IMG/VR virus record: IMGVR_UViG_3300045988_176028
Strand: one strand, 5' to 3'
DNA: 64,000 nucleotides
From: a virus
Made by a program: the position numbers and the translations under genes. Shown here in pieces: positions 8,822 through 54,607 of this stretch. The notes below the pieces were generated by a model, which did no database searches, was not told where the DNA came from, and saw only the letters and a list, made by a program, of their open reading frames with translations. How positions within the stretch are numbered: position 1 is the stretch's first letter; every line of letters starts with the position of its first letter.

Positions 8822-8840
8822 TGTGGACATTTCCAGTATA
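8822..8840 (-). promoter_or_regulatory. conserved promoter/leader box copy
   Basis: Coding-strand text is tatactggaaatgtccaca, preceded by TGC. Confidence 0.6.
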
Positions 8841-18041: not shown

Positions 18042-21000
18042 TCACTGTTCTTCCTTCTTTCGTAGGAGGATGATTGCCGCGACGAGTCCGCTGATGCTGA
18101 CGAGCATGAGGAGCGGCAACAGCAATCCCATGCCCGTGTGCGGCATGGTCGCCAACCATGTTTCAGGCAGGACACCCGCATCCACATGCTCCTTGGTTGG
18201 AGCATCTTGGGTGAGGGTGATGGTCAGCTTGTTGGCTTCATCCGTGTAAGCATCCGAATCAGTGGAGCTTCCATCCGTCGCAGGAGTCTTGTCTCCCACA
18301 TCCGGCGTGGTGAAGTCCCGGTGGTTCACTTTGGTGAATTGGATACGGTATTTGTTGCCGTTCGCGTCCAGACGTTCGAAAATGTACTTGCCATCCTTGT
18401 CGGTCTTGGTGGTTGCCAACTGTTTGCCGTTCTCGTCAGTCAGAATGACCGTCTGACCGGCGAAATGCGTGTTCTCACCTTCATCTTGAATGCCGTTCTT
18501 GTTGGTATCCTCCCAATACAGGCCGCTGATGGAACCGAGTTTCTTCGCGGTGGTGGTTGGTGTGATGATGGTGCCGACTTGGTCGCAGGAGTCCTCATCG
18601 GACGTGCTGAACCAGTGTTGGCGTCCTTCCTCCGTATAGTCGGTGTCGGTGCGGCATGTCGGATTGCCGGTCACGTCATTCGTGTTCGTATCCAGTTTGG
18701 ATGCGTTCGGAGGGTCCGGCTTGGTTTTGCCGCTTGCATGTGGCGTGCCTGAGTATGGCGTGTGTTCGGAGGTGAACCATGCTTGGTTGAGAATGGTCTT
18801 CGTATTCTTCTTGACCCACTCGTCTTTCTCAGTTGGAGACCACTTGGTAGTATCCGCAGTTTCACGGTCAACGGTGCCAGTGAAATGGTAGATGACATAG
18901 CCGCCCGACTCAATCGCATACGGCAGATTGTACGTGCGGGTCGTCAACCCCTTCTCCGTGGACTCGCTCAACGGTTCGACCGGTACGGCGGTCGGGTCGG
19001 ACGATACGACCATTCCCTTCAAACCGGTGGAACGTGCGCCACCCGTCTTGCCGTCACCATACGGGTCGAAGCCCGCAATCATGACCTGCTTGCCGACAAT
19101 GAGCACGTCACGGTCGCCGCCCGCAACGTCGGATGCGGTAATGCCCGTATCGATTGGCGTGGAAACAATATCCGCGTTGCCGCTCGTACTGCCGTTGGTC
19201 CAATACCTGCCTGTACCGGTCTTACCGTTCGCTAATTGGCCGTCACCATTCCAGCCAGCCGCCCACAAGTGTTGGTTCTTGTCGATGGCGTAGAAAGTGT
19301 TGTATCCGCCACCGATACGGGTGATGTACCTCAGATTAGACACATTGGACTGGCCGATACCGCTATCACCTCCGCCGACGAGCACTATCACTGTACCCGC
19401 GTCAGTCAACCCGTAGGCGTTGCCGAATGAGGCGACAACTTGCGTGAAACCAATAGAGAAAAACTCGTCGCCGTCCACCACACAACCGCCGTAGGACGTC
19501 AACGCGACCCACCTGTACGTGCTGGCGCTGACCTGCGTGAACGTTTTACCCGACTGGATTTGCGTCCACGTTGAATACGAGGTGGAACTGACTTTTCCGA
19601 CCACCCACAAGGTGCCGTCACTTGCTATCGCCACAGTGAACTGGTTGCCGCACGCCACGTCAACAAACGTCTTATCTTCTGCGACTAGAGTCCACTGGTC
19701 ACGATTATCCGTATCACCCGTACCCAATTGGCCTTTACCGTTCCAACCAGTCGTGTACAAGTGGCCGTCCGTGCTGATGGCGGCGGAATGCTTGCCACCG
19801 GCGGCGACTTTCAGCCAACTACCGTTGACGATGGTCGGCTTGTTCACGTTCGTTGGGGTAGCGGTATTCGTCGTGTCAGGCTTGAAACCTAATTGACCAT
19901 ACTGGTTGTTACCCCACGCATACAACAAGCCCTCGTTCGTCAACACAAACTTATGGTCGCCACTCGTCGCAACCTGCTTCGCACCACCAGACTCGATAGA
20001 AACCGTACCGGCGGTAGCGGAAACATCATGCACGTCGGCGCTCATACGGTCAGAAACGACACTGGAAGTATCAAAACGACTAGTGCCAGAATTCTGTACT
20101 TTGACATCCCAGTTGATGACGCATTTCGTATCGGTGCAACTGGTGCCGGTGACGGTTTTGTCCACGGTGGCTTTCGGGTCTGGTTTCGCATACCCGTAGT
20201 CCACGTTCTTCTGGTCTGCGCCGATGCCTAGGTGGATGTCGTCGGACGTGTCTTTCGCGTTGGACTTGATTTTGTTCGACCAGCTTCGCGTGTTCGTCAC
20301 GTTTTCGAGCTTGCCATAGTAGGTTTTGACCTGCGTCTGCACGCCATCACCCGTACTGGTGCCAGTGTTGCGTTTCACCGAAGTACGGTAGGTGCCGGAG
20401 TGGAGCAGGTTGAACTCGTAGTAGCCGTCCTTGTCGGTCTTCACCGTTTTGACGGCCTGCCAGCCGCCGCTTGAATCCTGCTTGCCGAGGGTGACTTCCA
20501 CTCCTTCGATACGTTCTTCACTGTCACCGATGAGCGTGTTCTCATCCTTATCCCACCAGACGGTGCCGCTGATGCTACCGGCCACTACCTTCGCCACGTC
20601 AGGCCACGGCTGGTTGCCCGCCGGTTTGTCGGAAGCGTCGGAATAATAGTTACGGCCAAGCCACAGCGTGTACTTGTCGTCTTTCACATTGTCGGATGGG
20701 GTGAGCGTGATGGCGCCGTTCACCGCCGAATAGGACAGTTTATCGTCGGACGCGACGACTGTGCTGGTCAGTCGGATGGCGATGATGTTCTTCTTCTCGA
20801 TGGAGGACAATTCATCCCATGTCTTCCACTCGTAGTCAGCCGGATTATCCGACTTCTTTCCGGTGGTGGTTGAATAGTAGACGGTCGTACTGGTCGAATT
20901 GTCCATATTGACCGTGACGGGCTGGGTCAGTTCGTAGGAGCCATGATAGTTGCTGTATCCACGCTCATATTCGACCAGCTTGTCCTGCACGTACTTCTCA

Positions 21001-23420
21001 TCACCATTCGCAGGAAGCAGTAGCATGCTATCCATGGTGCCGGTATGTCCGCCGCCCTTGCCGTACACGTTGAACTCCCAAGTAAGCGGGTCACTGATTT
21101 CAGCCTTCGTGGTCTTCACACGCATGATGCCACTGTTGGTTTCCGCATTGGAGACAGGGAATGGGACGCTGGGCGTATTGCTTTTGATGGTTTGGGCTTG
21201 CAATGCGCCGTTCTCGTCAACGTCCACGCTCATATTCGCACTGGCGGTCACAGTCCCGGTGGCGAGATTGGATACGATGCCACTGAAATGCAGGTCAGGC
21301 AAAGTGGCCGACCCCATACGGTCTACTTCCGGCGTGACTTTGCCGGAACGTGGCGTGAACACGAGATTATTCCCGTCCACTTTCATCTGCCAGAACGAAT
21401 CATCACAGGTCGGATTGTACAAGCCTTTCGGTTTCGGCACCGTGATGGTCGGCGTCATGCTCGTATTGGACAGGAGAATGGTGCGCAATTGTTCCGTGAC
21501 CGTATAATCCACTCGCATGCCGGGAGTCAAATCGACTGCGCTTCCGGACGGGTGATTGGAACTGTTGTTCGCATACACTTGATTGCCTTCACCATCGTAG
21601 GCTTTTAGACTGATGTCGATACTGGTGGTCGGGTCTACCGGCTTGGCAATCCACACCCAATTGGTGACGCTCGCCTTATCGTCTTCGGTAAGCCATGCGG
21701 TCAGCGTATCCAAAGCTTCCACATTGCCTTTGGACACGTCGGCTATGGCGAGCGTGTTGAACGTGACCTGAACGTTCGGCGCACCCTTTCCCAAAGTCAA
21801 AGTGTCGGGGTTGAACGTCACCCGAATCTTCTTGACGTTCGGAGCGTCTGTGTCGGATGGTTCCCCGTCATGCCAATTGTCTTTGCTATCATCCCATTGA
21901 ACTTTGTAGTCGGAAACCGGAGCGCCGTTCTGGGTGACTTCCAAGCTTCCATCCCACCGCATGCGCGTATTATCCCACTCGTCCTGCATGGTCGGCGTAG
22001 TGTTTTTAAGCTTGTCCGCCGTAACGTTCGCCGCATACATTTCCAAAATGGTTTTGACTTGCGTTCCACGGGACACGGTGTCGCCGGAACCGTCGGAATA
22101 GTAATGGTAGATGTCGGCTTTGCCTTCGGCGGCGTCGAACGTCAGATTCTCCTTGTCGAACATGGTCTTGGACGCAGTGTTAGGACGTTGCAGTCCTTTG
22201 CCGAACAGTGGAATCTTGCCAGCTGGAGTCGGCTTGAGCCGTTGGATGATGGCTCGTGACCAGTCATTATTCGCGTACGGGTAGCCGACGCGGGCACCCG
22301 TATCCTTGTTGTAGGTGCTCTTGTCCCGTCCAATGTTCCAGCCGGGTTCTCCACCTTTGCCCATGTTCAACAGTGCGTCGCCGTTATCGTCTTTGACGCT
22401 GAACACGGTTTCGTCGGGAACAAGGTGGACATCGTAATATTTGACGTCTCCTTCTTTCATGTTTTTGAGCGCGTCGGTTCCGGCGGGAATCCTGTAGCTG
22501 ATTGTCGCCGCCGCACCGTTCTTGCCACTGGATACGGTCAGATACTGTTCTTTATCACTGTTACGGGTAATCCGCTGACCGCCTACAGTCCACACGGTGT
22601 TCTGCGGGAAGTCGGAAATATCCACTTTGGTAGTCCAATCGATGCTGGTGGACGCGCCCTTCGTGGACGAATAACCCGGATAGGTCAACGCGTCGGCACG
22701 AATAGTGAAATCGCCGGTCGCGTCGGTGTTCTGACTCCAATAAGTACGATGCTCATACGAGTATTGGCCTTTCACCGGATTGCCGCCATTGTCAATGACC
22801 AAGTCAGCCGCCGGAGCGGATACTACAGTCAGCTCATCCGTACGATACGTGGTTGACGTTCCACCTTCGCGGGCGACGACGATTTTCGGAATCTGACCCG
22901 GCTTGACCAAGCCTCCCGTGTCTTTTGCTTTCAGATAGAAGGTTTGGGTCATGGTTTCCACGCCACCGGCTGGAACCGTGTAGGAGCAGGAGCCGTCACT
23001 GTTTTTCTTCGCGGTGACGAGTTGTCCCGGCTGGCAGAAGCCACCACCGTCAGCAGTCTGCAAATACGGCGCGTCGTCCAAGTCGAACTTCACGTTGATG
23101 GTACGCTTGCCCGCCGCGTTGAAGTTCAACGTCAATGAATATTCGACCGTATCACCGGATGCGACCACGCCATCGGTAGGGGAATCATCGCCCGTGGCGA
23201 ACCCGTTCTTCGAATTCACGAACGTTTGCGAACTCGTGCCATGCCCCGTACCGTCGGCTTTCTTAACGATTTTCGCAGTAGCATACGCAGGTTTCAACTC
23301 GTCCGCATGCGCTTTTGGAGAGGCTACCGGATTGGTCATGCATGTCAGGCCGGATGCCAGTGTGGCGATTGCGGCCAATAATGCTACCGGATGTGCCACA
23401 TGCTTTTTGAGAATACCCAT
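18042..23420 (-). CDS. giant cell-wall-anchored adhesin (1792 aa) with RCC1-like repeats and SdrD-B/Cna-B-like domains
   Basis: N-terminal signal peptide. RCC1-like repeats (WGNNQYGQLG, GWNGKGQLGTGD, GWNGDGQLANG). Two SdrD-B-like modules (ISGTVWWDKDEN...DKDGYYEF; ISGLYWEDTNKNGIQD...DKDGKYIF). C-terminal MPHTG, a hydrophobic helix and RKKEEQ. Confidence 0.85.
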   Translation of the reverse strand: MGILKKHVAHPVALLAAIATLASGLTCMTNPVASPKAHADELKPAYATAKIVKKADGTGHGTSSQTFVNSKNGFATGDDSPTDGVVASGDTVEYSLTLNFNAAGKRTINVKFDLDDAPYLQTADGGGFCQPGQLVTAKKNSDGSCSYTVPAGGVETMTQTFYLKAKDTGGLVKPGQIPKIVVAREGGTSTTYRTDELTVVSAPAADLVIDNGGNPVKGQYSYEHRTYWSQNTDATGDFTIRADALTYPGYSSTKGASTSIDWTTKVDISDFPQNTVWTVGGQRITRNSDKEQYLTVSSGKNGAAATISYRIPAGTDALKNMKEGDVKYYDVHLVPDETVFSVKDDNGDALLNMGKGGEPGWNIGRDKSTYNKDTGARVGYPYANNDWSRAIIQRLKPTPAGKIPLFGKGLQRPNTASKTMFDKENLTFDAAEGKADIYHYYSDGSGDTVSRGTQVKTILEMYAANVTADKLKNTTPTMQDEWDNTRMRWDGSLEVTQNGAPVSDYKVQWDDSKDNWHDGEPSDTDAPNVKKIRVTFNPDTLTLGKGAPNVQVTFNTLAIADVSKGNVEALDTLTAWLTEDDKASVTNWVWIAKPVDPTTSIDISLKAYDGEGNQVYANNSSNHPSGSAVDLTPGMRVDYTVTEQLRTILLSNTSMTPTITVPKPKGLYNPTCDDSFWQMKVDGNNLVFTPRSGKVTPEVDRMGSATLPDLHFSGIVSNLATGTVTASANMSVDVDENGALQAQTIKSNTPSVPFPVSNAETNSGIMRVKTTKAEISDPLTWEFNVYGKGGGHTGTMDSMLLLPANGDEKYVQDKLVEYERGYSNYHGSYELTQPVTVNMDNSTSTTVYYSTTTGKKSDNPADYEWKTWDELSSIEKKNIIAIRLTSTVVASDDKLSYSAVNGAITLTPSDNVKDDKYTLWLGRNYYSDASDKPAGNQPWPDVAKVVAGSISGTVWWDKDENTLIGDSEERIEGVEVTLGKQDSSGGWQAVKTVKTDKDGYYEFNLLHSGTYRTSVKRNTGTSTGDGVQTQVKTYYGKLENVTNTRSWSNKIKSNAKDTSDDIHLGIGADQKNVDYGYAKPDPKATVDKTVTGTSCTDTKCVINWDVKVQNSGTSRFDTSSVVSDRMSADVHDVSATAGTVSIESGGAKQVATSGDHKFVLTNEGLLYAWGNNQYGQLGFKPDTTNTATPTNVNKPTIVNGSWLKVAAGGKHSAAISTDGHLYTTGWNGKGQLGTGDTDNRDQWTLVAEDKTFVDVACGNQFTVAIASDGTLWVVGKVSSTSYSTWTQIQSGKTFTQVSASTYRWVALTSYGGCVVDGDEFFSIGFTQVVASFGNAYGLTDAGTVIVLVGGGDSGIGQSNVSNLRYITRIGGGYNTFYAIDKNQHLWAAGWNGDGQLANGKTGTGRYWTNGSTSGNADIVSTPIDTGITASDVAGGDRDVLIVGKQVMIAGFDPYGDGKTGGARSTGLKGMVVSSDPTAVPVEPLSESTEKGLTTRTYNLPYAIESGGYVIYHFTGTVDRETADTTKWSPTEKDEWVKKNTKTILNQAWFTSEHTPYSGTPHASGKTKPDPPNASKLDTNTNDVTGNPTCRTDTDYTEEGRQHWFSTSDEDSCDQVGTIITPTTTAKKLGSISGLYWEDTNKNGIQDEGENTHFAGQTVILTDENGKQLATTKTDKDGKYIFERLDANGNKYRIQFTKVNHRDFTTPDVGDKTPATDGSSTDSDAYTDEANKLTITLTQDAPTKEHVDAGVLPETWLATMPHTGMGLLLPLLMLVSISGLVAAIILLRKKEEQ

Positions 23421-36410: not shown

Positions 36411-37133
36411 TCAGATTTTCAGCTCATCGATAACGGAAAGGTCAACACCGTCACCCCAATTATCGACAATCTTGCTCAGGTTCTTACGCATTCCGGCAGG
36501 AGACTGGTCGTCAACCGGACGTCCGAAATTCTTCTCCGGCGCGACCGCGTTCAGCACGGAGAACAGCAGGTTGGTCATATCCTTGCCCTGCGCGAACACC
36601 AACGTCACCTCTGCGGCAATCATGCCCGGCTCGGCTGTAGCCAACCCTTCCAACGCGGACGCGAACTCAGAGATTCGACGTTGGTTCTTCGGCTCAGTCA
36701 ATGCGTCCAGCACTGCTTCCGGAGTGCTCTTCTTCGTATCAGTCAACGCCTTGGCGAGAGAAACCACACGCTCGTCATCCAACGATTTGACAAGAGGAAT
36801 CAGCTTCTTGCCGAACTGTTCCTCGATGTGCGGCATGGTCTTCTCACGCGGTTTGCGATTGGAACGGCCCTTACCCTTCCCCCTCGGCTTGTCTTCGGTT
36901 TCAGTGGACTCAGCGTCCACGTTCACATCCTCACCATCAGCCGGTGCGGACACGTCAGAGACAGGCTCCGAACTCTCCTGATTAAGAGAATCGGATTCCG
37001 TCTGCGACTCCTCGACAGAAGACTGCTCCGGTTCAGCATAATTGTCGGAACCGTAACCATTGTCCTGCTCCGACTGCTGGTTGTTGTTGAATCCCCAATT
37101 GGTGAAGTCTGGCATCATACCTTCTTTCGTCAT
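36411..37133 (-). CDS. acidic low-complexity N-terminus plus helical C-domain protein, 240 aa
   Basis: Complete ATG ORF convergent with 35580..36344. The N-terminal ~110 aa is rich in Asp, Glu, Ser and Gln. Confidence 0.6.
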   Translation of the reverse strand: MTKEGMMPDFTNWGFNNNQQSEQDNGYGSDNYAEPEQSSVEESQTESDSLNQESSEPVSDVSAPADGEDVNVDAESTETEDKPRGKGKGRSNRKPREKTMPHIEEQFGKKLIPLVKSLDDERVVSLAKALTDTKKSTPEAVLDALTEPKNQRRISEFASALEGLATAEPGMIAAEVTLVFAQGKDMTNLLFSVLNAVAPEKNFGRPVDDQSPAGMRKNLSKIVDNWGDGVDLSVIDELKI

Positions 37134-37279
37134 ATCCAGCGAACACTCCGGTCGTACAGGCTGTTAACAGTCGGAACGAGGTGTTCTGTATTTTCAATTC
37201 ACGAGTGTAACGCCCGACAGCATCCCTAAACGGGGAAAACGGGAAAAACAATTCCCCGCGCCGCCCGCGCCGGTAGTTC

Positions 37280-38010
37280 CAACAGAAAAGCGGAACCAAA
37301 AAGAGTCCCCAACAAATATGAAAAAAGGAACAACACCCGACCATTATCAGAAAAAACATGAAAACCATCCAGTCCACGCCGGTAGGTCAACATGAATAGC
37401 AGACTCAAAAAAAAGAGAAAAACCAAAAATCAAAAAGACTAAAAGAAAGGAAGCACTACCCACCAAAAAATCAGAAAAAGAAACCAAACACCATCACATC
37501 AAAAAAGAATAACCAAGAAAATCAGAAAGAAAAGAAAAACCAAAAGGAAGAAAAGGAGAATATAAGAGCAGCAATCTTAATCAAATAGAAGCAACAGAAG
37601 AACAGGACAATAAAAGAAGAAACACCTACCCCTAAATCGGGAATACAACGTATGAAAACAACAGAAGCAACGCAACCATCCACAAAGGAACAGCACATCA
37701 ACCCATATGGCATACAAAACAGAAGAACAACAGCACCAAACACCCCAAGAAACAAGAAAAGCCAAGCAACAGCACCACAAGGCAACAGGTCAAGCACCAG
37801 CACCAGCACAAACAACAACCAACAGCCACTACAACAACAAAAACAACAAAAAGGTCAATAGTCTCACTAACAAGGTCAACGACAATCAAAACAAGGTAAC
37901 ATCAATACAGGAACAGCCAATGCAATGAAAAAAGCAACAGCAAAACCAACAAAAAACTAAATATCAAAAAACTATAAATGCCAGAACTCGGACAAAACCG
38001 TAAACGTTCC
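37280..38010. other. ~0.75-kb non-coding A/C-rich, T-depleted tract
   Basis: Hand count gives 15 T in the 240 nt of 37621..37860 (about 6%). G is also scarce, there is no clear tandem periodicity, and no credible ORF. Confidence 0.8.
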
Positions 38011-38027
38011 GATGAAAACAACGGAAC

Positions 38028-39242
38028 ATGACCCATCAGGAGGCGGTCTTATTGGAAAAACGAACGATTTCCCTGATAATCGGCTCCGGAGGGCTTCTCA
38101 CAACTATCAAAAAGGCCCTTACGAGAGCTGGAAACATGCGTTGGCAGGTGCCCGCCGCAGACAATATTCAAGCACAGGCCGACTATCTGGTAAGACATCC
38201 GGTGCCCTCCGGGTTCAAGGGAATCATCTTCACTGACAGGGCTGGAAACTGGCTTCCGATAGCCAACGCCGGATACATGGTCTACTGGTGCAACACCGGT
38301 CAGATACCGGTCGGAGCCATAGGCATGAGCGAACAGATGTTACGCATGAGCGTGGCTGATTTCGCACGGACTTATTGGGGAATCCAGCTTGCGGACAAGC
38401 GTCTCGTAGTCGATATCCTCCAAAACAAAGTGAAGGAAACTGCGGTTCTCCTACCCATCACATCCAACACCGGAGGAGTGGGGAAGACCACGTCCAGCCG
38501 ACAGTTGGCAGACCGTGCGTCGCAAGCCGGATTGCGTGTTCTGCTCATCGACGGCAACATCAGACAGTCCAGTCAACGTAGTTTTTTCGACCCGAGACAG
38601 GACAAGCCATTGCATACGATAGCCGACTGGCGACCGGGCATGCAGGTGCAGGTCGGAGCCAATCGAGGACGTGACCTTGGGGTTCCATACGACATCTGTT
38701 TCGCACCTCCAGCAGGCGTCGGAGTGGACTGGCAGATATACCGTCAGTACATCCAAGCGGCACGCCGACTGTGGGATTTCGTCGTGCTCGACCTTGACCG
38801 AATCAGCGCGGACGATTTGGATGATAGGGAGAATATCGCCAACGGTTTACTGCTTCCATACATTCAATCGGGAGACCCTTGTCTGGTTATCATCAAGGCT
38901 GGAAGGCAGACGCAGATAGACGCGTTGAATCTGCTGACGGCCTTGGCTGAGCATCATCTTCCGAAGGAACTCATCGGAATCAAGGACACCGTTCCGGTCG
39001 GACTGCAAGGTTACAGACGACTCGACTATACGAGATACGGAACGTTTCTCGGAACCGAATATCAGACGGTCGAGGCAAGCAACCATATCGCCAACGGTGA
39101 TGTCAGATGGGATGACCCCGGTCTTGCTTTTGCTAGGGAGAACATTCTTAACTGGGCTTTGCCCGACCGTGGTTTCAATCCGGAAAGATTCAATCCGAAC
39201 GCTAAGAACAGTGAAGGAAAGAAAGGTCGTGGGCGTAAGTGA
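38028..39242 (+). CDS. ParA/MinD-superfamily P-loop ATPase with N-terminal extra domain (CpaE/TadZ-like layout)
   Basis: Deviant Walker A context ITSNTGGVGKTTSSRQLA...LLIDGN around residue 150. An alternative start is the TTG at 38052, 8 nt after AGGAGG. Confidence 0.65.
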   Translation: MTHQEAVLLEKRTISLIIGSGGLLTTIKKALTRAGNMRWQVPAADNIQAQADYLVRHPVPSGFKGIIFTDRAGNWLPIANAGYMVYWCNTGQIPVGAIGMSEQMLRMSVADFARTYWGIQLADKRLVVDILQNKVKETAVLLPITSNTGGVGKTTSSRQLADRASQAGLRVLLIDGNIRQSSQRSFFDPRQDKPLHTIADWRPGMQVQVGANRGRDLGVPYDICFAPPAGVGVDWQIYRQYIQAARRLWDFVVLDLDRISADDLDDRENIANGLLLPYIQSGDPCLVIIKAGRQTQIDALNLLTALAEHHLPKELIGIKDTVPVGLQGYRRLDYTRYGTFLGTEYQTVEASNHIANGDVRWDDPGLAFARENILNWALPDRGFNPERFNPNAKNSEGKKGRGRK

Positions 39243-40435
39243 CATTCGATGACCGTTTTCTTTTCGACCCGAACGACGAGAATCTTTGGAAGACCGGAAG
39301 CATTGCCGACTGGTATAAAGGCAACGACATGTTCGAGATGGAGCATCCCGGATTGTTCGCGCAGACCCACCCGTGGTTCGTTGCGAACAAACTGTTCGCG
39401 GAGACAATGGTGAAAGCGAACAGCGAACTCGTTTCGAGTATCCTCGGCGCATTGTTCACTTGGAAGACATGCACGGTTGACCAACTACGTGCGGGACTTT
39501 CCATCAAAGGCGCTCCCGCTTTCGAACGTGACGAACCGAACCTGTATGGTGCGATGAACCGTTTGGGAATCATCAACGTCGGTTTCAGTCAGGCGGAACG
39601 ATTGTACGGTCAGACCGTGAATCATGTTTGGCTTTCACCGTCGAACAGTCCACGTCTTATCAACCGTGCGATGAAATTGTACGGGATGGAAAAGTGGATG
39701 CGTGAGACGATGGCGGTTTCCTATTACGCGGGGAATCGTTTCCATGTTCGGCATAACACTTATGCGGCGCACGCGGGATTGATGTTGGCACGCGATTCAC
39801 GCGTGAAATTCTCATCCGGTGATGGTTGGGGAAAATTCCGTAGCGTTGACCCACAGGCTGTTGCCGAGTCGAAGGTCGGCAAGGCTTGCGCGACCGACGT
39901 GGTGACGTTGTGCCGGAACAATGTGTTGGCGGGTATCGAAATCCAAACGTCCAACAGCGAATTGGATAAGAAGATGCAGAACTGGGCTAAGATGCTCGCC
40001 TATTCTCCGATGAAGCGTCGCGGACTCATCTGCGTATGGTTGCAGATACCGAAGGCAAACGAAGGTTACGAATCGTTCAACGCGGTGGTACAACGCACGC
40101 AAGGCATGACGGAAATGGTCGTGGGCAATCCTACCGTGTCGCAACGAATGGGAATCGCGGTCTGGGACGAATGGTTCGAGCATGGGATGCCGACCGACAG
40201 GTTCGGTGACTATACGGATATGAGTGGAACACGACGCAACATTTTCTCCGACGAGTGGGCGCAATATACTCCGCAGGTTCGTGACGTTCGCAAAGTCAGC
40301 GAATGGGGTTGGGACGTGACGCGAGACATCATAAAGAAGGATTGGGGTTGGGATGTTTCCGGTTGGACAATGCCGGAAGCGTACCGTGGCGGTTTCTACG
40401 GTTTCATTGGAAAGGATTGCGATGGTCTCCACTGA
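39239..40435 (+). CDS. replication-relaxation (Replic_Relax)-like protein, candidate relaxase
   Basis: N-terminal wHTH-like ILGALFTWKTCTVDQLRAGL. Later H...D...E-x-Q arrangement (HVRHNTYAAHAGL; ATDVVTL; GIEIQTSNSELDKK), as I recall for PF13814. Unverified. Confidence 0.45.
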   Translation: MTFDDRFLFDPNDENLWKTGSIADWYKGNDMFEMEHPGLFAQTHPWFVANKLFAETMVKANSELVSSILGALFTWKTCTVDQLRAGLSIKGAPAFERDEPNLYGAMNRLGIINVGFSQAERLYGQTVNHVWLSPSNSPRLINRAMKLYGMEKWMRETMAVSYYAGNRFHVRHNTYAAHAGLMLARDSRVKFSSGDGWGKFRSVDPQAVAESKVGKACATDVVTLCRNNVLAGIEIQTSNSELDKKMQNWAKMLAYSPMKRRGLICVWLQIPKANEGYESFNAVVQRTQGMTEMVVGNPTVSQRMGIAVWDEWFEHGMPTDRFGDYTDMSGTRRNIFSDEWAQYTPQVRDVRKVSEWGWDVTRDIIKKDWGWDVSGWTMPEAYRGGFYGFIGKDCDGLH

Positions 40436-40887: not shown

Positions 40888-43548
40888 ATGGGTAATCCGA
40901 ACTGGTATCAGATAACCAGAACGTTGCAACAGTTAGACCCGGACGAGCAACGTTCTAAAGTGGAGAGCATTCCAGCCGAACTGGATGGTTGCACCCTTCT
41001 CCTCATCAAGAAGGGCGAGGAGCCGGTCAAGGAATATATTTACGGTGACGGCGAGGGAATCGTCAACGCCGGACAGTTGGCTGGTTTTGACGCGAGACTG
41101 GTCGAAGACGACGACGGGCCGGTGTTGCCGGATGGCGTGAACAGTGCGGCGCATCCTCTTGTACCATTTCGCGCCCGGTTGAACTCGAAAAGCAACATGG
41201 AGAAGATGCGGACGAACTATTCCGGCGTTCGTACAAGCATCGAGAAGGTCATGCCGCCGGACAGTTATGTGAGCGTCACGCTTCGCAATCAGGGATACTT
41301 CGAGCAGATTCGCATTCGTAATTGGATTAGCGACGAATACAATGCGGTGGAGGATTCAAGCGAACTCGCTTCGACCAACACGATGTGCGCCCGTGTGAGT
41401 TTCGGTTGCCGTCAGGCTTCGCGTAACCGACAGCTTGCGCAGAAGATTGGTCAAATCATCTGTCCGCTCATATCCAACATGTCCAGTCATGCGAGCCGTC
41501 CGAAATTCGGTTTGCTGTTCGTCAGCATGCTGTTGGAAGTGTTGTCCGTGATTTGGAGTGTGTGCGGTCTTGCAAGAGGATACGTGATGGATGGCGTGTT
41601 CCCATTGTTCCATTCCGCTTGGGGTTTCGGAATCGCGCTTCCACTGCTTGCGGTGACGTTGGTCGTGTTCCTGTTCCTCATGCTGTTGTCGTGCATTCCG
41701 TTCGTTTACATTCCGCGACCTCAGATTGCCGGTGGCGCGGTGGCTCTCATGCTTTACCTGCTGTTGGGGTTGCTTCCGCTCCCGACATTCATTCCGATTC
41801 TTTTCGTTCCTCTTCTTGTATTCGCGTTCATCCGTTGGAAGAATTGGACGTTGTGGGATGACATTTTCCAAACGCCACGCAGATATTATGCGATTGCGAA
41901 CGACCGTGGCGCGAACGAGTCCGATAATCAGACCCGTCTTGGCGTGCGAACTCATAAGGAGCGTGTGTCGGCTTATGGTGCGCAACGTACCACGTTGATT
42001 CTTTCCCCGATTATCGTGAGTTCCGTGTTCACTCCGGTCACTCAGGGAGTGGCGATGAAGCAGGAGTTGCATCCGGTTCCGGAAGTATTGTCTCATGATG
42101 GCATCTTCCTCGGGAAAGACGATACGGGACGTAACTGTTATCTCGACCCGTCGCAATTGTTCGGCGGTATCGCCATCAACGGTGAAGCCGGTTCCGGTAA
42201 GACAGTTCTCACTCATGGCATCAGCCAGTGGGCAATCAGCGCACGAGAAACCACCAGTCCGAAAATCTGGGGGCGCGACTCCCGTATCATCCATTTTTGG
42301 ATGAAGGATGATACCGGCGTCAACGTGTTGGAACGTTATCGCAAACGTCACGGTTTCACCAGTCCGCAGCGAGTCGTCTACTTGGCAGACCCGAACAGTG
42401 TATGTTTGGACATGCTTGGCATGAAGGACGGGAACAATGCGATGGAGACTGCGGCGAGCGTGGCGAAAACCATGCGCTACTCGTTCGATGACGGTGATAT
42501 TCTGAACGACTCGCAGAACATCATCACCCAAGCGTTGACCATCGGCGTGGCGGTTGACCGTTACGTGCAGGAGGAGCGCAAGCATAATCCCGAATCCGCG
42601 AACAAGGATTGGGAAAGCGAGATTGTGAAACGTTGCCACCAGCTCGAACAATCGTATCCGGGTGCGGAACAGTTGCGAATGCAGTTGAGTCCAATCGGAT
42701 GGGCCGTCGTCGCATTATGCGGTTCCGACGGTCAGGCCGGTTCCGCGAAAGCGTTGGGCCATGTGTGCCGCGCGTTGAGCATGGAGTTGAAGAGTGGCTA
42801 CATGTTCGAGGAGATGACGTATGCGGCTCGTGCGGCCGAACAATTGTATGGCCGTCCGGATGCGGCTGGTCATACGGTTCGTTCCGACCGTGACATTCTT
42901 ACGAAGACGAACGCTTCGTTGAACAAGGTGAACCAGTTCCTTCCCATCGAACACATGTTCACCGCACGCCGTGGCAAGGTGACTTGGACGAACATTCTCG
43001 ACCATGCTGGCGATTATCACATTGTGCTCGCACCACATAATGGTTATTCGTTGCCGGAACGTATGGATAAGATTCTCGGCGGCTGGCTCATGTACCGTTT
43101 CTGGAATACGGTGTTCGCGCATTGCAAGGATTGGGACAAGGCGGGCAAGTGGACGATGCTCGTGTGCGACGAGTTGAGCCTGTTGGCTAACGGCAATGAT
43201 GGCATCATGCCCGCATTGCGCGAGCAGGGCCGTTCGTTCGGTCTTCTTCTCGTGTTCGCCACCCAGTATCCGACCCAGTTGTCCGACGCGATGTTGGATT
43301 CGTTCATCGGCTATTCGACGTTCATCACATACAATACGACGATTCCGCGTATCGCCGATATGACGGCGAAGCGTCTGACGAACAATGACGGGGAGGATGG
43401 TTGGCGTTCAGGTGCGGTCATGAATCTTCCGCGTTATGCGGCGGCTGTTCGCACTCGAACCCAAGAACAGTTGCAGCCGACATTCCTTGTCCATGTGAAC
43501 GATTTCGATAACGGTTATCGCAATGGTGACATGGACGATGATGACTAG
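40888..43548 (+). CDS. membrane-anchored P-loop ATPase of the transfer apparatus (VirD4/TcpA-type coupling protein or VirB4-type; not discriminated)
   Basis: 886 aa. Four to five hydrophobic helices around residues 200-330. Walker A INGEAGSGKTVL and Walker B MLVCDELSLL. RBS GGAAAGGAAGG. Confidence 0.65.
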   Translation: MGNPNWYQITRTLQQLDPDEQRSKVESIPAELDGCTLLLIKKGEEPVKEYIYGDGEGIVNAGQLAGFDARLVEDDDGPVLPDGVNSAAHPLVPFRARLNSKSNMEKMRTNYSGVRTSIEKVMPPDSYVSVTLRNQGYFEQIRIRNWISDEYNAVEDSSELASTNTMCARVSFGCRQASRNRQLAQKIGQIICPLISNMSSHASRPKFGLLFVSMLLEVLSVIWSVCGLARGYVMDGVFPLFHSAWGFGIALPLLAVTLVVFLFLMLLSCIPFVYIPRPQIAGGAVALMLYLLLGLLPLPTFIPILFVPLLVFAFIRWKNWTLWDDIFQTPRRYYAIANDRGANESDNQTRLGVRTHKERVSAYGAQRTTLILSPIIVSSVFTPVTQGVAMKQELHPVPEVLSHDGIFLGKDDTGRNCYLDPSQLFGGIAINGEAGSGKTVLTHGISQWAISARETTSPKIWGRDSRIIHFWMKDDTGVNVLERYRKRHGFTSPQRVVYLADPNSVCLDMLGMKDGNNAMETAASVAKTMRYSFDDGDILNDSQNIITQALTIGVAVDRYVQEERKHNPESANKDWESEIVKRCHQLEQSYPGAEQLRMQLSPIGWAVVALCGSDGQAGSAKALGHVCRALSMELKSGYMFEEMTYAARAAEQLYGRPDAAGHTVRSDRDILTKTNASLNKVNQFLPIEHMFTARRGKVTWTNILDHAGDYHIVLAPHNGYSLPERMDKILGGWLMYRFWNTVFAHCKDWDKAGKWTMLVCDELSLLANGNDGIMPALREQGRSFGLLLVFATQYPTQLSDAMLDSFIGYSTFITYNTTIPRIADMTAKRLTNNDGEDGWRSGAVMNLPRYAAAVRTRTQEQLQPTFLVHVNDFDNGYRNGDMDDDD

Positions 43549-50524: not shown

Positions 50525-51394
50525 TTAGGATACGAACGGGTTCATCGGCTCTTCATCGTCTGCCACGCCCGCGTCCGTGTCGGCATCATCGTTAGCCGAC
50601 TGGATGGAAGGGAGACTGGGACGGACTATGACACCGGTTTCCGTGACTTCGACTTTCAATTCCGGCCATGCGAGCTGAATCTTCTCCAACGCTCTCTTGA
50701 ACTTGCGTCTGAATTCACGCATCGGATACCCGTCATACTTGAACTGCATCAACAGGGCTTCCCATGTCACGCGCGTCTCATGGCGCATGGCATGGGCACG
50801 GAACGCGAGCCACTGGTATACGTCCAACGCGAGGGCATCGTTGCGAAGCTGGCGAACGATGGATGGGTTGAGAGGAACGCAGTTCTCCGTCAGCAGTGCC
50901 CACATCTCGGGGGAGAACTTTATGTAAGACTTCTTCGCCCCGTCATCGTCGTAGTTGAGTGACACTATGTTGGCAACGAAGAAAGAGTGGGCTGTGAATC
51001 CGCCAGTGGACCAGTTTTCAAGGACGATGGAGGTTGTCGCTAGATTCCTGACCATGTTCATTACCGTCTCCTTGCTGGACCCTGAATAGTGGATTCCAGT
51101 GCTCTTGCAGAATGAACGATAGGTGTCGTCCAAGTAGACGGTATGATTCTCTGCGTCCACACAGTCGCTACTGTTCTTGATGAGAGAACGGATGTGGATG
51201 AGGAACATTCTGGGGGCTGCTCCGTATGCCCATTCTCCGGTGGAGGCCGAGACTGTGATTGACGAGTTTCCGTTAATTTTTCTCATGGACTGAGATTCCG
51301 GTTTCGACTGCGGCAGGAAACTCAGCTTAGACATAACCGACGGCGTGTAGTTGTATGTATTCGACTTGTAGAGGTCTTTGCTATGATTGGTCAT
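50525..51394 (-). CDS. repA: plasmid replication initiator, RepA family (RepA_C-type)
   Basis: Layout YGAAPRMFLIHIRSL...SIVRQLRNDALALDVYQWLAFRA...VTWEALLMQFKYDGYPMREFRRKFKRALEKIQLAWPEL matches the plasmid-encoded RepA pattern I recall. Iterons lie about 240 nt upstream. Confidence 0.75.
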   Translation of the reverse strand: MTNHSKDLYKSNTYNYTPSVMSKLSFLPQSKPESQSMRKINGNSSITVSASTGEWAYGAAPRMFLIHIRSLIKNSSDCVDAENHTVYLDDTYRSFCKSTGIHYSGSSKETVMNMVRNLATTSIVLENWSTGGFTAHSFFVANIVSLNYDDDGAKKSYIKFSPEMWALLTENCVPLNPSIVRQLRNDALALDVYQWLAFRAHAMRHETRVTWEALLMQFKYDGYPMREFRRKFKRALEKIQLAWPELKVEVTETGVIVRPSLPSIQSANDDADTDAGVADDEEPMNPFVS

Positions 51395-51634
51395 GTGACC
51401 ACGACTCCTTCAGTGTTAGGTGGTTGCCATTCCCCGGCTGGTTCCAACAGTGCGGGGATTTTCTTTTCTCAGAACAGTATACGTCACTACCTACCCCTTA
51501 TAGATTCTTTTCTACCCTCCGTCTTTTTGTAGCTTCGAACTGCTTGCGAAAAAGGTCGAACGGGGCATGAGGAAGTGCCACAGAACGTGAGAAAGCGGAA
51601 CCAAAAGTTGGAACTTCTGACACACATAGACAAA

Positions 51635-51700
51635 AAAGTGGGCACTTTCGACACGGAAAGTGGGCACTTTCGACACGGAAAGTGGGCACTTTCGACACGC
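51635..51700. repeat. iterons: three tandem 22-bp direct repeats (origin of replication)
   Basis: Unit aagtgggcactttcgacacgga at 51635, 51657 and 51679 (third copy 20/22). A tttcgacac half-site recurs at about 51732. Confidence 0.85.
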
Positions 51701-51744
51701 TTTCAACCCGAAACGCCTACTCCCATAAGGGATTTCGACACCTG

Positions 51745-51870
51745 CAAAAGGTATACAAAAGATTACAAAAGATATTAATATCCCTTGTATTCCCTTCTTT
51801 TTCAAAAAACAAGTTTTTCAAAAAGAAGCAAAAAATCAAAAAATTAGAATAAAACCATTTTTTGATTCTA
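51745..51870. other. AT-rich stretch next to the iterons (candidate DNA-unwinding element)
   Basis: Markedly AT-rich with short repeats (acaaaag x2; tttttcaaaaa x2). Sits beside the iterons and repA. Confidence 0.45.
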
Positions 51871-52125
51871 CGTTCAGACAGGGTGAACCCTGAGCAACGA
51901 TTATCCTCAATGCTGTTTTTCGTTTCAACAACGTTGACGTTTAGACAGGTCTGAATGTTTTCGAGGGAAGAGAGAAAAAGAAAAGTTCCGGAAAAAGAAA
52001 AACAGAGAAGCCGACACCGCCGGTGGATGCATGTAGAAAACCCCGAAGCCGATATAGGAAACCTCGGACGGAAGGTAGACTTGAAGACAGTGCATGACAA
52101 GCGGAAATGAATTCGGAGCGGAACT

Positions 52126-53406
52126 GTGTTCGGAAGCAAGAAAGACAAGAACGGCAAACAGCCGATGGGCCAGCAGAAGGCGAAGCAGAACCCGAACAAT
52201 GAGACCGACCTGTTCGCTGATGAAAAAGAACGCAAGGACGAGATAGAACTCACCGCGTGGAAGAAGGCGTTGAAGAACACACAGAAGTGGAAGGTTCTCA
52301 TCATCCTGTTCATCTGCACCGGTCTGGTCGCCCCGATGATTTCCGTCCGCGCAATCAACACGTTGAACGAAATGGGTTCCTACCTGACGGAGAAGTACAA
52401 GGAAATCAGCGGCGACAAGCCCGGCAAGCAGGTCGCATTGCAAGCCGTGTACAGTTGGCTGGATGATGACAAGGGCGCTTTCCAATATGGGTATGCGAAT
52501 TTGTGGTGGAATGGTGCCACTGAAGTCAGCACTTCCACGTCGGATGATTCCGATGGTGCCACGACTCAGTATTGGAGCCATCAGATGTCCCTCACCGATA
52601 AGTCGGATGGAAGCACGAGGGATATCACCCAGCTTGTCGCCGTCACCGATGGTGTGGCTACTGCGGTGGGAACGCCGACCGTGCTTCCCAAGACCGTCAC
52701 TTCGAACAGCAATACGGACACGTACCGTCCCGACGGTTACATTCAGCTTGACCAGAACACAAGCCTGACGAACGTGGTCAGCGCTTGGTCTAAAGCGTAC
52801 ATCGGCAAAGACGCCAACGCTTTGACGGTACTTGTCGGAGACCCGAACAGCGACCACATGTACCAGCCAGCAAGCTTGGGTTCGTATCTGAACTCGTCCC
52901 TCGACTGGCTTGTGCAATGCACCAAGGACGGCAAGACCGTTGACAAGCAGAACAAGTCCGACAATCCCGAATGGGCGGCGGCGAGCGTCAGCATCTCGTT
53001 CAAACCCTACGAGAAGAAGGTTGACGCAAGCACCGCCAACGACCCGAACGCGGACACTGGTTCAACGAGCAACGTGGAGACGAGCGTCACCGTCCTCATC
53101 CATAATCCGACCCGTGGTAGCGCGAAAATCGTTGACTGGGGTGCCGAAGGCAGTCTGACCACGTTGAAGGCGTTCAGCAATGCCATCGACCGTTCGCTGA
53201 TTGGCTCTTCCAGCAGTGATGACGATGATGATTCTTCCGATTCCAGTTCATCGGATTCCGATAGCGGTTCCGGTGATGACGGTTCCGACAATGACGATTC
53301 CGACTCCTCCGATTCGGATTCGTCCGACAACAACGGCAGTAGTTCATCCCAGAATTCCGATGACGGTTCCGTAACCGGCGACCCCAATGAGGGGCCGAAC
53401 GACTAA
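52126..53406 (+). CDS. membrane-anchored extracytoplasmic protein with Ser/Asp-rich tail, 426 aa (TcpC/VirB8-like position)
   Basis: GTG start 7 nt after GGAG. One N-terminal TM helix (WKVLIILFICTGLVAPMISV). C-terminal SSSDDDDDSSDSSSSDSDSGSGDD... The functional analogy is positional only. Confidence 0.6.
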   Translation: MFGSKKDKNGKQPMGQQKAKQNPNNETDLFADEKERKDEIELTAWKKALKNTQKWKVLIILFICTGLVAPMISVRAINTLNEMGSYLTEKYKEISGDKPGKQVALQAVYSWLDDDKGAFQYGYANLWWNGATEVSTSTSDDSDGATTQYWSHQMSLTDKSDGSTRDITQLVAVTDGVATAVGTPTVLPKTVTSNSNTDTYRPDGYIQLDQNTSLTNVVSAWSKAYIGKDANALTVLVGDPNSDHMYQPASLGSYLNSSLDWLVQCTKDGKTVDKQNKSDNPEWAAASVSISFKPYEKKVDASTANDPNADTGSTSNVETSVTVLIHNPTRGSAKIVDWGAEGSLTTLKAFSNAIDRSLIGSSSSDDDDDSSDSSSSDSDSGSGDDGSDNDDSDSSDSDSSDNNGSSSSQNSDDGSVTGDPNEGPND

Positions 53407-53581: not shown

Positions 53582-54607
53582 ATGGCTAAGAAGAAAGGCG
53601 GAATGTCCGCCGGTTCCCTGCTTGGCGGCATTCTGGTCGTGTTGACGGCCATGGTGCTCATCGTGAATCTTGGATTGTGGACTCCCATGTCGAAGATTTT
53701 CGGATTGCCGGAAATCAACAGTCTATCCCAGTTGATGCCGGGTGAGGATTCCAAGGTGAAGCCGGATGTGAAATTAGGGTTGAAGGAGCCTTCCTTGAAG
53801 TCGTCCGGCTCCAATTCGCAAACCAATACTCCAGAAGCCGCAGAAACGCCCTCAGAAACGACGCAGACACAAAATGGGGACAATTCCTCAAGTCAAGCAC
53901 AAAAAGCCTCCACAAGCGTTCCTGAAGGTGCTTTAAGCCCTATCAGCACGAAACAGGCGCTTGACAAACTCGCTGACATCGAAACCGCAACCCCGCACAC
54001 CAAAGGATACAATCGCAAAACCGACTTCGGCACATGGCAGAACAGCAACCAGCTCTGCGGATACGGCACCACCCGCGACTACATCCTCAAACGCGACATG
54101 ACCGACGTGACCATGGACAAGAACTGCAAGGTGCTCACCGGCACCCTCCAAGACCCATATACAGGCAATGCCATCAAATTCCAGCGCGACACCTACGAGA
54201 CCGTCAACGGCAAACAGAAGAAAACAGGCGGAGACAGCATGGCCGTCCAAATCGACCATGTGGTGGCTGTCAACGACGCTTGGGCCAGCGGACTGTGGAA
54301 GGACTCGCGCAAGGGCGACCGCATCACCTATGCGAACGACCCGGAAGTGCTCGTCGCGTCCGAAGGAGAAGCGAACAACATCAAACAGCAGGGCGTGAAC
54401 CTTGTTAAGGACGAGGCGTTGAACGGTTCCTCGACCAGGTGGAAGGACGCAACGCCCAGCATTTGGCTCCCGTCCAACAAGACGTACCAATGCTCGTATA
54501 TGGCTAAACGCGTGTACATCAAAGACAAGTACAAACTGTCCATGAGCAGTTGGGAAAAAGCCGAAACGAAGTCGTTCCTCACGCAATGCGTGGCCGACGG
54601 GAACTGA
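53582..54607 (+). CDS. membrane-anchored extracellular DUF1524/HNH-type nuclease
   Basis: N-terminal TM helix. C-domain GYNRKTDFGTWQ...CGYGTTRDYILKRD...DPYTGNAIKF...VQIDHVVAVNDAW...YANDPEVLVASEGEANNIKQ...WLPSNKTYQC matches the actinobacterial DUF1524 nuclease pattern. Confidence 0.7.
   Translation: MAKKKGGMSAGSLLGGILVVLTAMVLIVNLGLWTPMSKIFGLPEINSLSQLMPGEDSKVKPDVKLGLKEPSLKSSGSNSQTNTPEAAETPSETTQTQNGDNSSSQAQKASTSVPEGALSPISTKQALDKLADIETATPHTKGYNRKTDFGTWQNSNQLCGYGTTRDYILKRDMTDVTMDKNCKVLTGTLQDPYTGNAIKFQRDTYETVNGKQKKTGGDSMAVQIDHVVAVNDAWASGLWKDSRKGDRITYANDPEVLVASEGEANNIKQQGVNLVKDEALNGSSTRWKDATPSIWLPSNKTYQCSYMAKRVYIKDKYKLSMSSWEKAETKSFLTQCVADGN

Follow-up and report, generated by a model that had tools for sequence, protein, structure and literature searches.

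A T-poor, strand-asymmetric tract ahead of a DNA-transfer-type operon in a pMP7017-like megaplasmid is constrained in composition rather than in sequence

The DNA analyzed here, termed the window, is a stretch of 64,000 nucleotides (nt) from the IMG/VR virus record IMGVR_UViG_3300045988_176028. We examined a non-coding gap of the window that lies between a leftward gene for a 240-amino-acid (aa) protein and a rightward gene for a ParA-like ATPase, and whose plus strand, the sense strand of the operon opened by the ParA-like gene, is rich in A and nearly free of T. We read this tract as a non-coding control region heading a DNA-transfer-type (Dtr-like) operon of a megaplasmid of the pMP7017 family. 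Comparison with relatives showed that the tract body (~37300-37850) is constrained in composition and strand, not in sequence or length. The tract looks functional, and we tentatively favor the reading that it is a long, unfoldable, untranslated leader that would act as a Rho entry zone, a reading that we hold to be possible rather than probable.

The gap between the divergent genes at 36411..37133 (minus strand) and 38028..39242 (plus strand) measures 894 nt, in agreement with the ~890 nt reported in an earlier note that was made from the letters of the window only. The base make-up of 37280-38010 is A 53.2%, C 23.9%, G 14.0% and T 8.9%, and the 240 nt of 37621-37860 contain A 120, C 74, G 31 and T 15. 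The earlier note had described a plus strand almost without T and scarce in G and had counted 15 T in the latter interval; the description holds and the count is exact. Base totals of the 64-kb window are balanced (A 15135, T 15157, G 17005, C 16703), as had also been said of the remainder of the window. A sliding analysis of composition and skew, which the note had proposed, gave an AT skew of 0.66-0.77 over ~37200-37900, compared with a mean of 0.00 (standard deviation 0.23) for 300-nt windows across the 64 kb. With T-poor defined as at most 10% T in 100-nt windows, the tract extends over 37199-38006 (808 nt), which is the longest such segment on either strand of the window and its sole long non-coding T-poor segment. 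The most AT-rich 400 nt of the window (37294-37693; GC 0.357 versus 0.527 ± 0.038) are situated inside it, and the most AT-rich 400 nt of pMP7017 likewise fall within the tract of that plasmid. The composition is not uniform along the tract, since a GC-rich box marks the 5′ edge, the interior changes from A/G-rich (~37400-37620) to A/C-rich (~37621-37850), and a sequence-conserved block of ~180 nt forms the 3′ edge.

Judged by its sequence, the window is related to pMP7017, a conjugative megaplasmid of Bifidobacterium and the earliest conjugative plasmid to be reported from this genus. A part of the window, located in the ParA-like gene and at the beginning of the gene after it, is ~65-67% nucleotide-identical to Bifidobacterium megaplasmids including pMP7017 (B. 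breve JCM 7017), and the gene order is kept across the family: dnaB, and further on the divergent gene, the gap, the ParA-like gene and genes for proteins of 398 aa, ~150 aa and ~880 aa. Annotated plasmids, public assemblies, metagenomes and IMG/VR together supplied 61 loci related to that of the window, with 55 distinct upstream regions among them (individual loci are given below by L numbers); scans of genome contigs found no relatives. A T-poor, A-rich block of at least 150 nt on the sense strand is present upstream of the ParA-like gene in 52 of the 55 distinct relatives, and a block of at least 300 nt in 42; the 95th percentile of background T-poor block lengths on any strand is 246 nt. 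The block is found down to 43% identity of the ParA-like protein, in constant orientation relative to the operon and at 0-450 nt from the gene. A skewed tract as a general trait of large gaps was rejected, because pMP7017 (190 kb) has only one non-coding tract of this kind and the other large gaps of the family plasmids are A/T-balanced iteron regions beside RepA.

The earlier note had also suggested homologous plasmids as a comparison that would tell conservation of composition from conservation of sequence, and this comparison showed that composition is conserved and sequence is not. Between the window and L014 or L012, the tract body is 65-67% identical, compared with 92-94% for the proximal block and 87-88% for the gene, and the tract body contains dozens of indels, most of which are not multiples of 3. 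Among nine loci with 99%-identical ParA-like proteins, nucleotide diversity (π) rises from 0.014 in the gene through 0.023 in the proximal block to 0.160 in the tract body, so that the tract body turns over ~11 times faster than the adjacent gene. In the same clade, 13% of tract columns are in indels, among them a copy-number polymorphism of a 109-nt box and an indel of ~45 nt. Nevertheless, every haplotype of the clade has A 0.52-0.56, C 0.23-0.25, G 0.14-0.17 and T 0.06-0.07. The B. longum clade (24 distinct sequences) shows the same trend in a milder form, with π of 0.028 versus 0.008 and lengths of 238, 271 and 293 nt. What is conserved in the region is therefore the composition, the GC-rich box at the far end and the ~180 nt next to the gene, and only these three. 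As sequence turns over ~11 times faster than in the gene while base frequencies are nearly fixed, whatever reads the tract would sense a physical property, for example an unfoldable single strand free of U or T.

In L033, whose ParA-like gene is ~99% identical to that of the window, the tract diverges from the others by up to 42% and is similar to the type seen in L012 and L014, which suggests that recombination swaps tract alleles. The gap of L020 (656-3000; 84% ParA identity) is 2.3 kb long, moderately T-poor and richer in C than in G throughout, and may contain an insertion. L019 has an extra ~700 nt that are T-poor but GC-rich (C 36-48%).

The origin of the skew was analyzed through rare variants in the tract. 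With the major allele taken as ancestral, a crude polarization applied to small numbers, 23 rare variants act against the A>T skew and 9 strengthen it (binomial p = 0.02). Equal fluxes are expected at mutational equilibrium, so the composition is most simply held by selection, and the variants point to selection on the base composition of the tract. If the minus strand were persistently single-stranded, G>A and T>C changes would be expected on the plus strand, which would explain the A/C half and the hypervariability. A pure single-strand deamination bias was nonetheless rejected, because it does not fit the A/G half and the flux of rare variants runs in the opposite direction.

The physical consequence of the composition is seen in folding of the sense strand. 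As sense RNA, the tract has a minimum free energy of −13 to −28 kcal/mol per 300 nt, compared with −33 to −61 for the antisense RNA and −93 ± 16 for the window background, and a 600-nt fold of the tract gave −38 against −130 for GC-matched, skew-free random sequence. Segments made only of A and G, or only of A and C, permit no Watson-Crick pairing. Because the operon-sense strand is A-rich, nearly T-free and divided into A/G and then A/C parts, it cannot fold as a single strand; the tract as sense RNA is almost structure-free.

Several other explanations of the tract were rejected. It is not a protein-coding gene: stops occur in all three plus frames (11, 6 and 8), no more than 90 codons are open in a row, the ATG of the longest open reading frame (ORF) is lost inside the closest clade, no ORF is conserved, 3-nt periodicity is absent and indels are not multiples of 3. 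Gene calls do exist inside tracts of relatives, namely RefSeq WP_172685975.1 (91 aa, pMP7017 record 53034-53309, corresponding to L001 7198-7473, minus strand) and a 372-aa call in L019 (1870-2988, plus strand), and both appear artefactual, the product of a composition in which several frames stay open. A tandem repeat, iteron or CRISPR-like array was rejected because the repeat search of the tract found no meaningful tandem periodicity, only short local micro-repeats. Neither 3-nt nor ~10.5-nt periodicity was detected in the tract, and intrinsically curved DNA was rejected, as 10-11-bp phasing of A-tracts is lacking. The repeat, periodicity and frame scans thus bear out the statement of the earlier note that the tract has neither tandem periodicity nor a plausible ORF. 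The tract is depleted in TpA to the same degree as the plasmid as a whole (rho 0.58 versus 0.54), indicating no signal, and special avoidance of TpA or of stop codons was rejected. A known RNA family was likewise rejected, with no Rfam match at gathering thresholds in the whole window and none at E ≤ 1 in 36900-38300. On the sense strand, no intrinsic terminator was found in 37200-38027 and no canonical promoter inside the tract.

From left to right, the gap begins with mixed sequence (37134-37227), in which the promoter scan placed a weak sense promoter-like element composed of TTAACA (37164-37169), a 19-nt spacer and TATTTT (37189-37194). The element, a prediction with non-optimal spacing, lies upstream of the GC box and is a possible candidate for a distal promoter that would transcribe the tract. 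TRF then found a short tandem 9-mer (AAACGGGGA, 2.4 copies) at 37228-37249 and the GC box, a tandem 9-mer (CCCGCGCCG, two copies), at 37255-37272; an inverted repeat CGGGGAA...TTCCCCG lies within 37228-37272. The GC box is the only motif common to the whole family beyond chance, as CCCGCGC occurs in 9 of 14 non-redundant gaps where 1.3 are expected, and its position at the 5′ edge of the tract is fixed in all lineages. Comparable −10-like hexamers on the sense strand, such as TATACT (L006) and TATAGT (L008), immediately precede it in 6 of 17 lineages. Inside the tract body, relatives share no motifs beyond composition. Inverted repeats of the GGTTCC-N11-GGAACC type are conserved in position; they show one possible compensatory change (L004 versus L008), and their pairing is broken in several lineages. 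A known nic motif was not found among the repeats and inverted repeats of the gap.

A further box, CCGCGCCGGTAG-GTnC-N11-AGCGGA(A/C)-AAAAA, also written CCGCGCCGGTAG...AGCGGAAC...AAAAA, forms a direct repeat on the plus strand at 37265-37302 and 37374-37411, 109 nt apart. These are its only occurrences in the 64-kb window, and the CCGCGCCGGTAG box is conserved in L012, L014, L003, L005 and L008. The 109-nt unit that carries the CCGCGCCGGTAG...AGCGGAAC box (37268-37376) is present in two copies in the window and in one copy in L028 and L037; as the ParA-like proteins of the latter are 99% identical to that of the window, sequence comparison identifies this unit as a copy-number polymorphism.

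Downstream of the boxes, the first half of the tract body (37412..37620, plus strand) is purine-rich (A/G-rich), T-poor and constrained in composition only. The second half (37621..37844, plus strand) is A/C-rich and poor in both G and T. Its best 80-nt window for C over G (37773-37852; C 28, G 8, T 2) is similar in composition to Rho utilization (rut) sites. In 12-13 of 18 lineages, a C>G block of this kind comes 110-540 nt before the gene (230-540 nt in 11). The background maximum of C−G was 14 ± 5 per 700 nt. Wherever this block lies inside the tract body, the best 80-nt window of G over C is situated upstream of it.

The sequence-conserved proximal block (37845..38027, plus strand) contains three direct repeats AAGGT(C/A)AA(C/T) spaced ~21-24 nt apart, a sense −10-like TAACAT (37897-37902) and a hairpin formed by GTTCCG (38006-38011) and CGGAAC (38022-38027). 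It also holds a promoter-like element on the minus strand, comprising TTGGCT (reverse complement of 37915-37920), N16 with TG and TACCTT (reverse complement of 37893-37898), which overlaps TAACAT. Across the alignment, 1 of the 24 pairs of the proximal-block fold is compensatory, and the predicted proximal hairpins are without U-runs.

The left neighbor of the tract, conserved in the family, is the divergent gene of the ORF list at 36411..37133 (minus strand). Its 240-aa product has an acidic, disordered N-terminus, a basic patch (KPRGKGKGRSNRKPREK) and a C-terminal helical domain that is conserved among 13 aligned orthologues, and it had no match in Pfam, NCBIfam or PDB. On the right, the first gene of the operon (38028..39242, plus strand) encodes an ATPase of the ParA/MinD superfamily with an N-terminal extension (Pfam CbiA/AAA_31); its NCBIfam matches were under the cut-offs and 47 homologues were found. 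Rather than at ATG 38028, translation probably starts at TTG 38052-38054, which follows a perfect AGGAGG (38038-38043) by 8 nt. A stop interrupts the ATG frame of this gene in L020, where the gene is called from TTG.

The following gene (39239..40435, plus strand) lies between those for the ParA-like ATPase and the coupling protein and encodes a 398-aa protein of a conserved but unannotated family with 26 homologues. The earlier note had named it a candidate relaxase, a proposal that found no support. The protein had no sequence match in Pfam, NCBIfam or PDB, and none of 20 members of the family had a Pfam match; hhalign of a 20-sequence profile against the TraX-type protein of pTEF1, taken to represent the MOB_C relaxases, revealed no similarity (probability 0.1%). 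Its AlphaFold2 model is confident (predicted local distance difference test, 85), and Foldseek returned weak, non-significant matches (best E = 0.045, TM 0.16-0.25), nearly all of which were nucleases of the restriction-endonuclease fold. Invariant D220, E234, Q236 and K245 are placed on a β-β-α core of the model, and the protein may have a PD-(D/E)XK nuclease-like core.

The gene at 40888..43548 (plus strand) encodes an 886-aa membrane-anchored ATPase with the fold of type IV secretion system (T4SS) coupling proteins (VirD4/TrwB), as found by Foldseek (Cagβ 2.4e-9, TrwB 5.9e-9; TM 0.57-0.61 on target). An invariant Walker A motif (GxAGxGK) is present, and long helices span residues 207-318. 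HerA-type ATPases score similarly to coupling proteins against the model, so the assignment as a type IV coupling protein (T4CP) rests also on the context and on the name given by NCBI to its homologue P0080, type IV conjugative DNA transfer protein. With these qualifications, the modeled protein has the fold, the Walker A motif and the N-terminal anchor by which type IV coupling proteins are recognized. The claim of the earlier note that the tract heads transfer genes was therefore corroborated, as this protein is encoded 2.9 kb downstream. The folds and names of the neighbors indicate that the context is a DNA-transfer-type operon, composed of a ParA-like ATPase, a possible nuclease-fold protein, a small protein and a T4CP, and that a relaxase is not among the identified proteins.

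How might a tract of this kind act? Rut regions are C-rich, G-poor, unstructured RNA of ~80 nt or more. If the tract were transcribed in sense from the weak promoter beside the GC box, it would be the long 5′ leader of the operon. Such a leader would be naked, untranslated and unfoldable, with C above G in its 3′ half, and as such would be a substrate and an entry zone for Rho, so that the default state of the costly transfer operon would be off. Read-through or re-initiation would then be decided at the proximal block, where the repeats, the −10-like element and the hairpin lie ahead of the Shine-Dalgarno sequence. Consistent with this leader reading, the sense strand is less structured than the antisense strand, the orientation is fixed, and neither a terminator nor a promoter is found internally. 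Unstructured RNA of at least ~80 nt with C well above G is found in 12-13 of 18 lineages, and the tract has no functional ORF. In its 3′ half, the tract resembles rut regions in being C-rich, G-poor, unstructured and untranslated; it differs from them in a length 5-10 times that required, in its A/G-rich 5′ half, and in that the constant of the family is A>T, not C>G.

A number of observations weigh against the leader reading. The paper on the pMP7017 transcriptome and its supplement give neither a transcription start site nor coverage for the gap. Among the promoter-like features, the one with the widest conservation is a −10-like hexamer in sense, 104-165 nt ahead of the gene (~12 of 17 lineages), and if this were the operon promoter, the tract would be upstream of the promoter and outside the mRNA. 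In the clade of the window, moreover, the proximal motif is also a good minus-strand promoter directed into the tract, so that antisense transcription is equally possible. The distal sense promoter is weak, with its 19-nt spacer, and has a counterpart in only the 6 lineages given above. The five most distant lineages have little or no C>G skew, the A/G-rich half lacks a rut-like composition, and the universal feature, A>T, is not needed for Rho binding. Finally, unfoldedness of RNA needs no low G+C, yet the most AT-rich 400 nt of both the window and pMP7017 belong to the tract.

A regulatory leader at the head of a conjugation operon has a precedent in pLS20, whose operon has a 456-nt leader with the zipper-type attenuator cATTpLS20 beside a divergent regulator gene (PMC13401043). 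Similarly, the tract is a long non-coding region between a divergent gene and the first gene of a conjugation operon of Gram-positive type, and the upstream half of the pLS20 leader is, like the tract, without stable hairpins (PMC13401043). The pLS20 leader keeps a large and costly transfer operon off (PMC13401043), the role that the tract would have as a Rho entry zone. However, pLS20 uses defined stem-loops and an intrinsic terminator, whereas the tract is almost structure-free and without a U-run terminator hairpin. The host phylum also differs, the two regions have no sequence relationship, and the status of the tract as a leader is putative. An attenuator of the pLS20 zipper type was rejected, because 37200-38027 has no terminator-like site in the sense direction and the proximal hairpins are without U-runs.

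A close rival, only slightly less likely in our view and likewise possible rather than probable, is that the tract acts as DNA, as an element of the origin of transfer (oriT). It would then be an easily melted zone whose displaced strand forms no hairpins, with the GC-rich inverted-repeat boxes as the protein-binding or nicking end, and it would load a helicase, the coupling protein or single-stranded DNA-binding protein, or would be the first single-stranded DNA to enter the recipient. The tract resembles an oriT in its single copy in pMP7017, its being the sole long non-coding T-poor stretch of the window, its place directly upstream of the Dtr-like operon with the ParA-like ATPase, the possible PD-(D/E)XK protein and the T4CP, and the conserved GC-rich repeats and inverted repeats that flank the most AT-rich 400 nt of both plasmids. 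Hypervariability and indels fit frequent single-strandedness. Furthermore, MOB-suite classes the family plasmids as non-mobilizable, meaning that no known relaxase is recognized, even though they are experimentally conjugative. DNA unwinding elements, known from replication origins, are constrained in composition and not in sequence or length, and the tract is like them in this respect and in having repeated boxes beside an AT-rich, strand-asymmetric zone. It differs from them in that the vegetative origin of the family is elsewhere (PMC8313286), the tract has no iterons and the targets of RepA are other repeats.

Against an oriT stands first the relaxase, since none was identified, the adjacent 398-aa protein failed every relaxase test tried, and no recognizable relaxase or nic motif is near the tract. 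To our knowledge, the oriT regions characterized so far are shorter, and a strand skew this extreme, extending here over 300-1100 nt, is not a described feature of them. The extra ~700 nt of L019 are GC-rich and would be hard to melt, A-tract phasing or curvature is lacking, the inverted repeats show no convincing covariation, and melting of a duplex does not by itself need segregation of A and T between strands. A more specific version, which we regard as rather unlikely, is that the tract belongs to a new kind of oriT, as an unwinding and loading zone that would be strand-specific, defined by composition only and unfoldable as a single strand, with the 398-aa PD-(D/E)XK-like protein and the ParA-like ATPase as DNA processors. 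If this were true, an oriT element would work through the physical state of one DNA strand, not through sequence.

Less likely still is a role of the tract as a duplex spacer between promoters, which would insulate them, let the distal boxes and the proximal repeats loop together, or either recruit or keep out a nucleoid protein, for instance Lsr2. Promoter-like elements do occur at both ends of the gap, on the minus strand near the divergent gene in most lineages and in sense 104-165 nt from the operon gene; repeated boxes likewise occur at both ends, length is very variable, sequence is free and G+C is the lowest of the plasmid. In pLS20, a divergent repressor has operators at the conjugation promoter (PMC13401043). 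However, a duplex role leaves unexplained the segregation of A and T between strands in the same orientation in 52 of 55 relatives, as well as the order of A/G and then A/C blocks. Other large divergent gaps of these plasmids are A/T-balanced, and there is no curvature signal.

Leftward transcription from a bidirectional proximal promoter, which would turn the tract into an antisense RNA or into a 5′ leader, rich in U and G, of the 240-aa gene, with the skew arising in part from exposure of the non-template (minus) strand, appears improbable. In its favor, the minus-strand element described above (TTGGCT, N16 with extended TG, TACCTT) is conserved in the clade of the window and directed into the tract. 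Deamination of an exposed minus strand would yield G>A and T>C on the plus strand, the two classes of rare variant whose per-site rates are the highest (0.097 and 0.065, from very few events), and the resulting A+C-rich plus strand matches the second half of the tract. But the element is not conserved beyond the clade of the window, and in most lineages the divergent gene has a promoter-like element of its own nearby. A drive of G>A is at odds with the A/G-rich half, and the flux of rare variants (23 against 9) erodes the skew instead of maintaining it. Furthermore, the leader would have 53% U, and leaders of this kind are prone to pausing and termination. That the tract is merely neutral, self-perpetuating low-complexity DNA, a by-product of slippage, fits its many short local repeats, its length polymorphism in repeat-sized steps and a sequence evolving at or above the neutral rate, but is very improbable, because the same place, orientation and composition are kept down to 43% protein identity although annotated genes are mostly closely spaced, and because rare variants push toward normal composition, so that the skew should have decayed without selection.

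Long leaders and AT-rich flanks of oriT are known kinds of element. In the literature searched, we found no description of a composition-only, sequence-hypervariable element of 0.3-1.1 kb that heads a transfer operon. The tract appears to be an unusually clean bacterial case of selection on strand-specific composition alone and is a good test case for composition-coded function. It is also the most conspicuous non-coding feature of its family, placed where transfer control or oriT is expected, and plasmids of the pMP7017 type are the only conjugative plasmids characterized in Bifidobacterium. Such megaplasmids were reported in about 10% of human gut microbiome samples (PMC10832533). An answer as to whether the tract is an oriT or a switch of the transfer operon would aid the design of mobilizable bifidobacterial vectors and the prediction of plasmid spread.

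Published work on pMP7017 bears on the tract in several ways. The transcriptome paper mentions neither the tract nor oriT nor a relaxase (PMC10832533). The minimal replicon has been mapped to 118,220-120,584 (PMC8313286), ~65 kb from the counterpart of the tract at ~52,650-53,360 of the pMP7017 record, and a vegetative origin (oriV) was therefore rejected for the tract, which also contains no iterons. Membership in the published 34-bp promoter regulon of pMP7017 was rejected as well, since the motif occurs elsewhere only, the single copy of the window being at 8822-8840 (minus strand), where it overlaps a −10 box (TATACTGGAAATGTCCACA, 2 mismatches).

Other observations concern the remainder of the window. 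The second most AT-rich gap (51395-52125) lies between the RepA_C gene (50525-51394, minus strand) and an ORF at 52126 (plus strand) and has three 22-bp direct repeats GGAAAGTGGGCACTTTCGACAC at about 51641-51706. From its sequence and position it looks like the counterpart of the RepA iteron region of pMP7017, whose repeats differ (CTTAGAATTTTGACACC). The 15-mer AAGCGGAACCAAAA(A/G), with at most 1 mismatch, occurs only at 37288-37302, in the distal box of the tract, and at 51593-51607, in the RepA_C gap; 0.15 matches are expected by chance at a setting of up to 2 mismatches, and the 15-mer may be a shared protein-binding site. Binding of RepA to the distal box was rejected, as the known repeats of RepA differ. 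A total of 43 relatives (L028-L070, contigs of 17-205 kb) are catalogued in IMG/VR as viral genomes (UViGs), and the family has phage-like genes for DnaB, RNA ligase, DUF3310 and a tail-tip lysozyme, to which pMP7017 adds a tRNA array and tmRNA. Together, the viral cataloguing and these genes show that plasmid or phage status is inconsistent across databases. Accessory cargo unrelated to the tract includes a 1792-aa surface-type protein with RCC1-like, SdrD B-like and SpaA-type domains (18042-23420, minus strand) and a protein with a GmrSD_C domain, similar to restriction endonucleases (53582-54607, plus strand).

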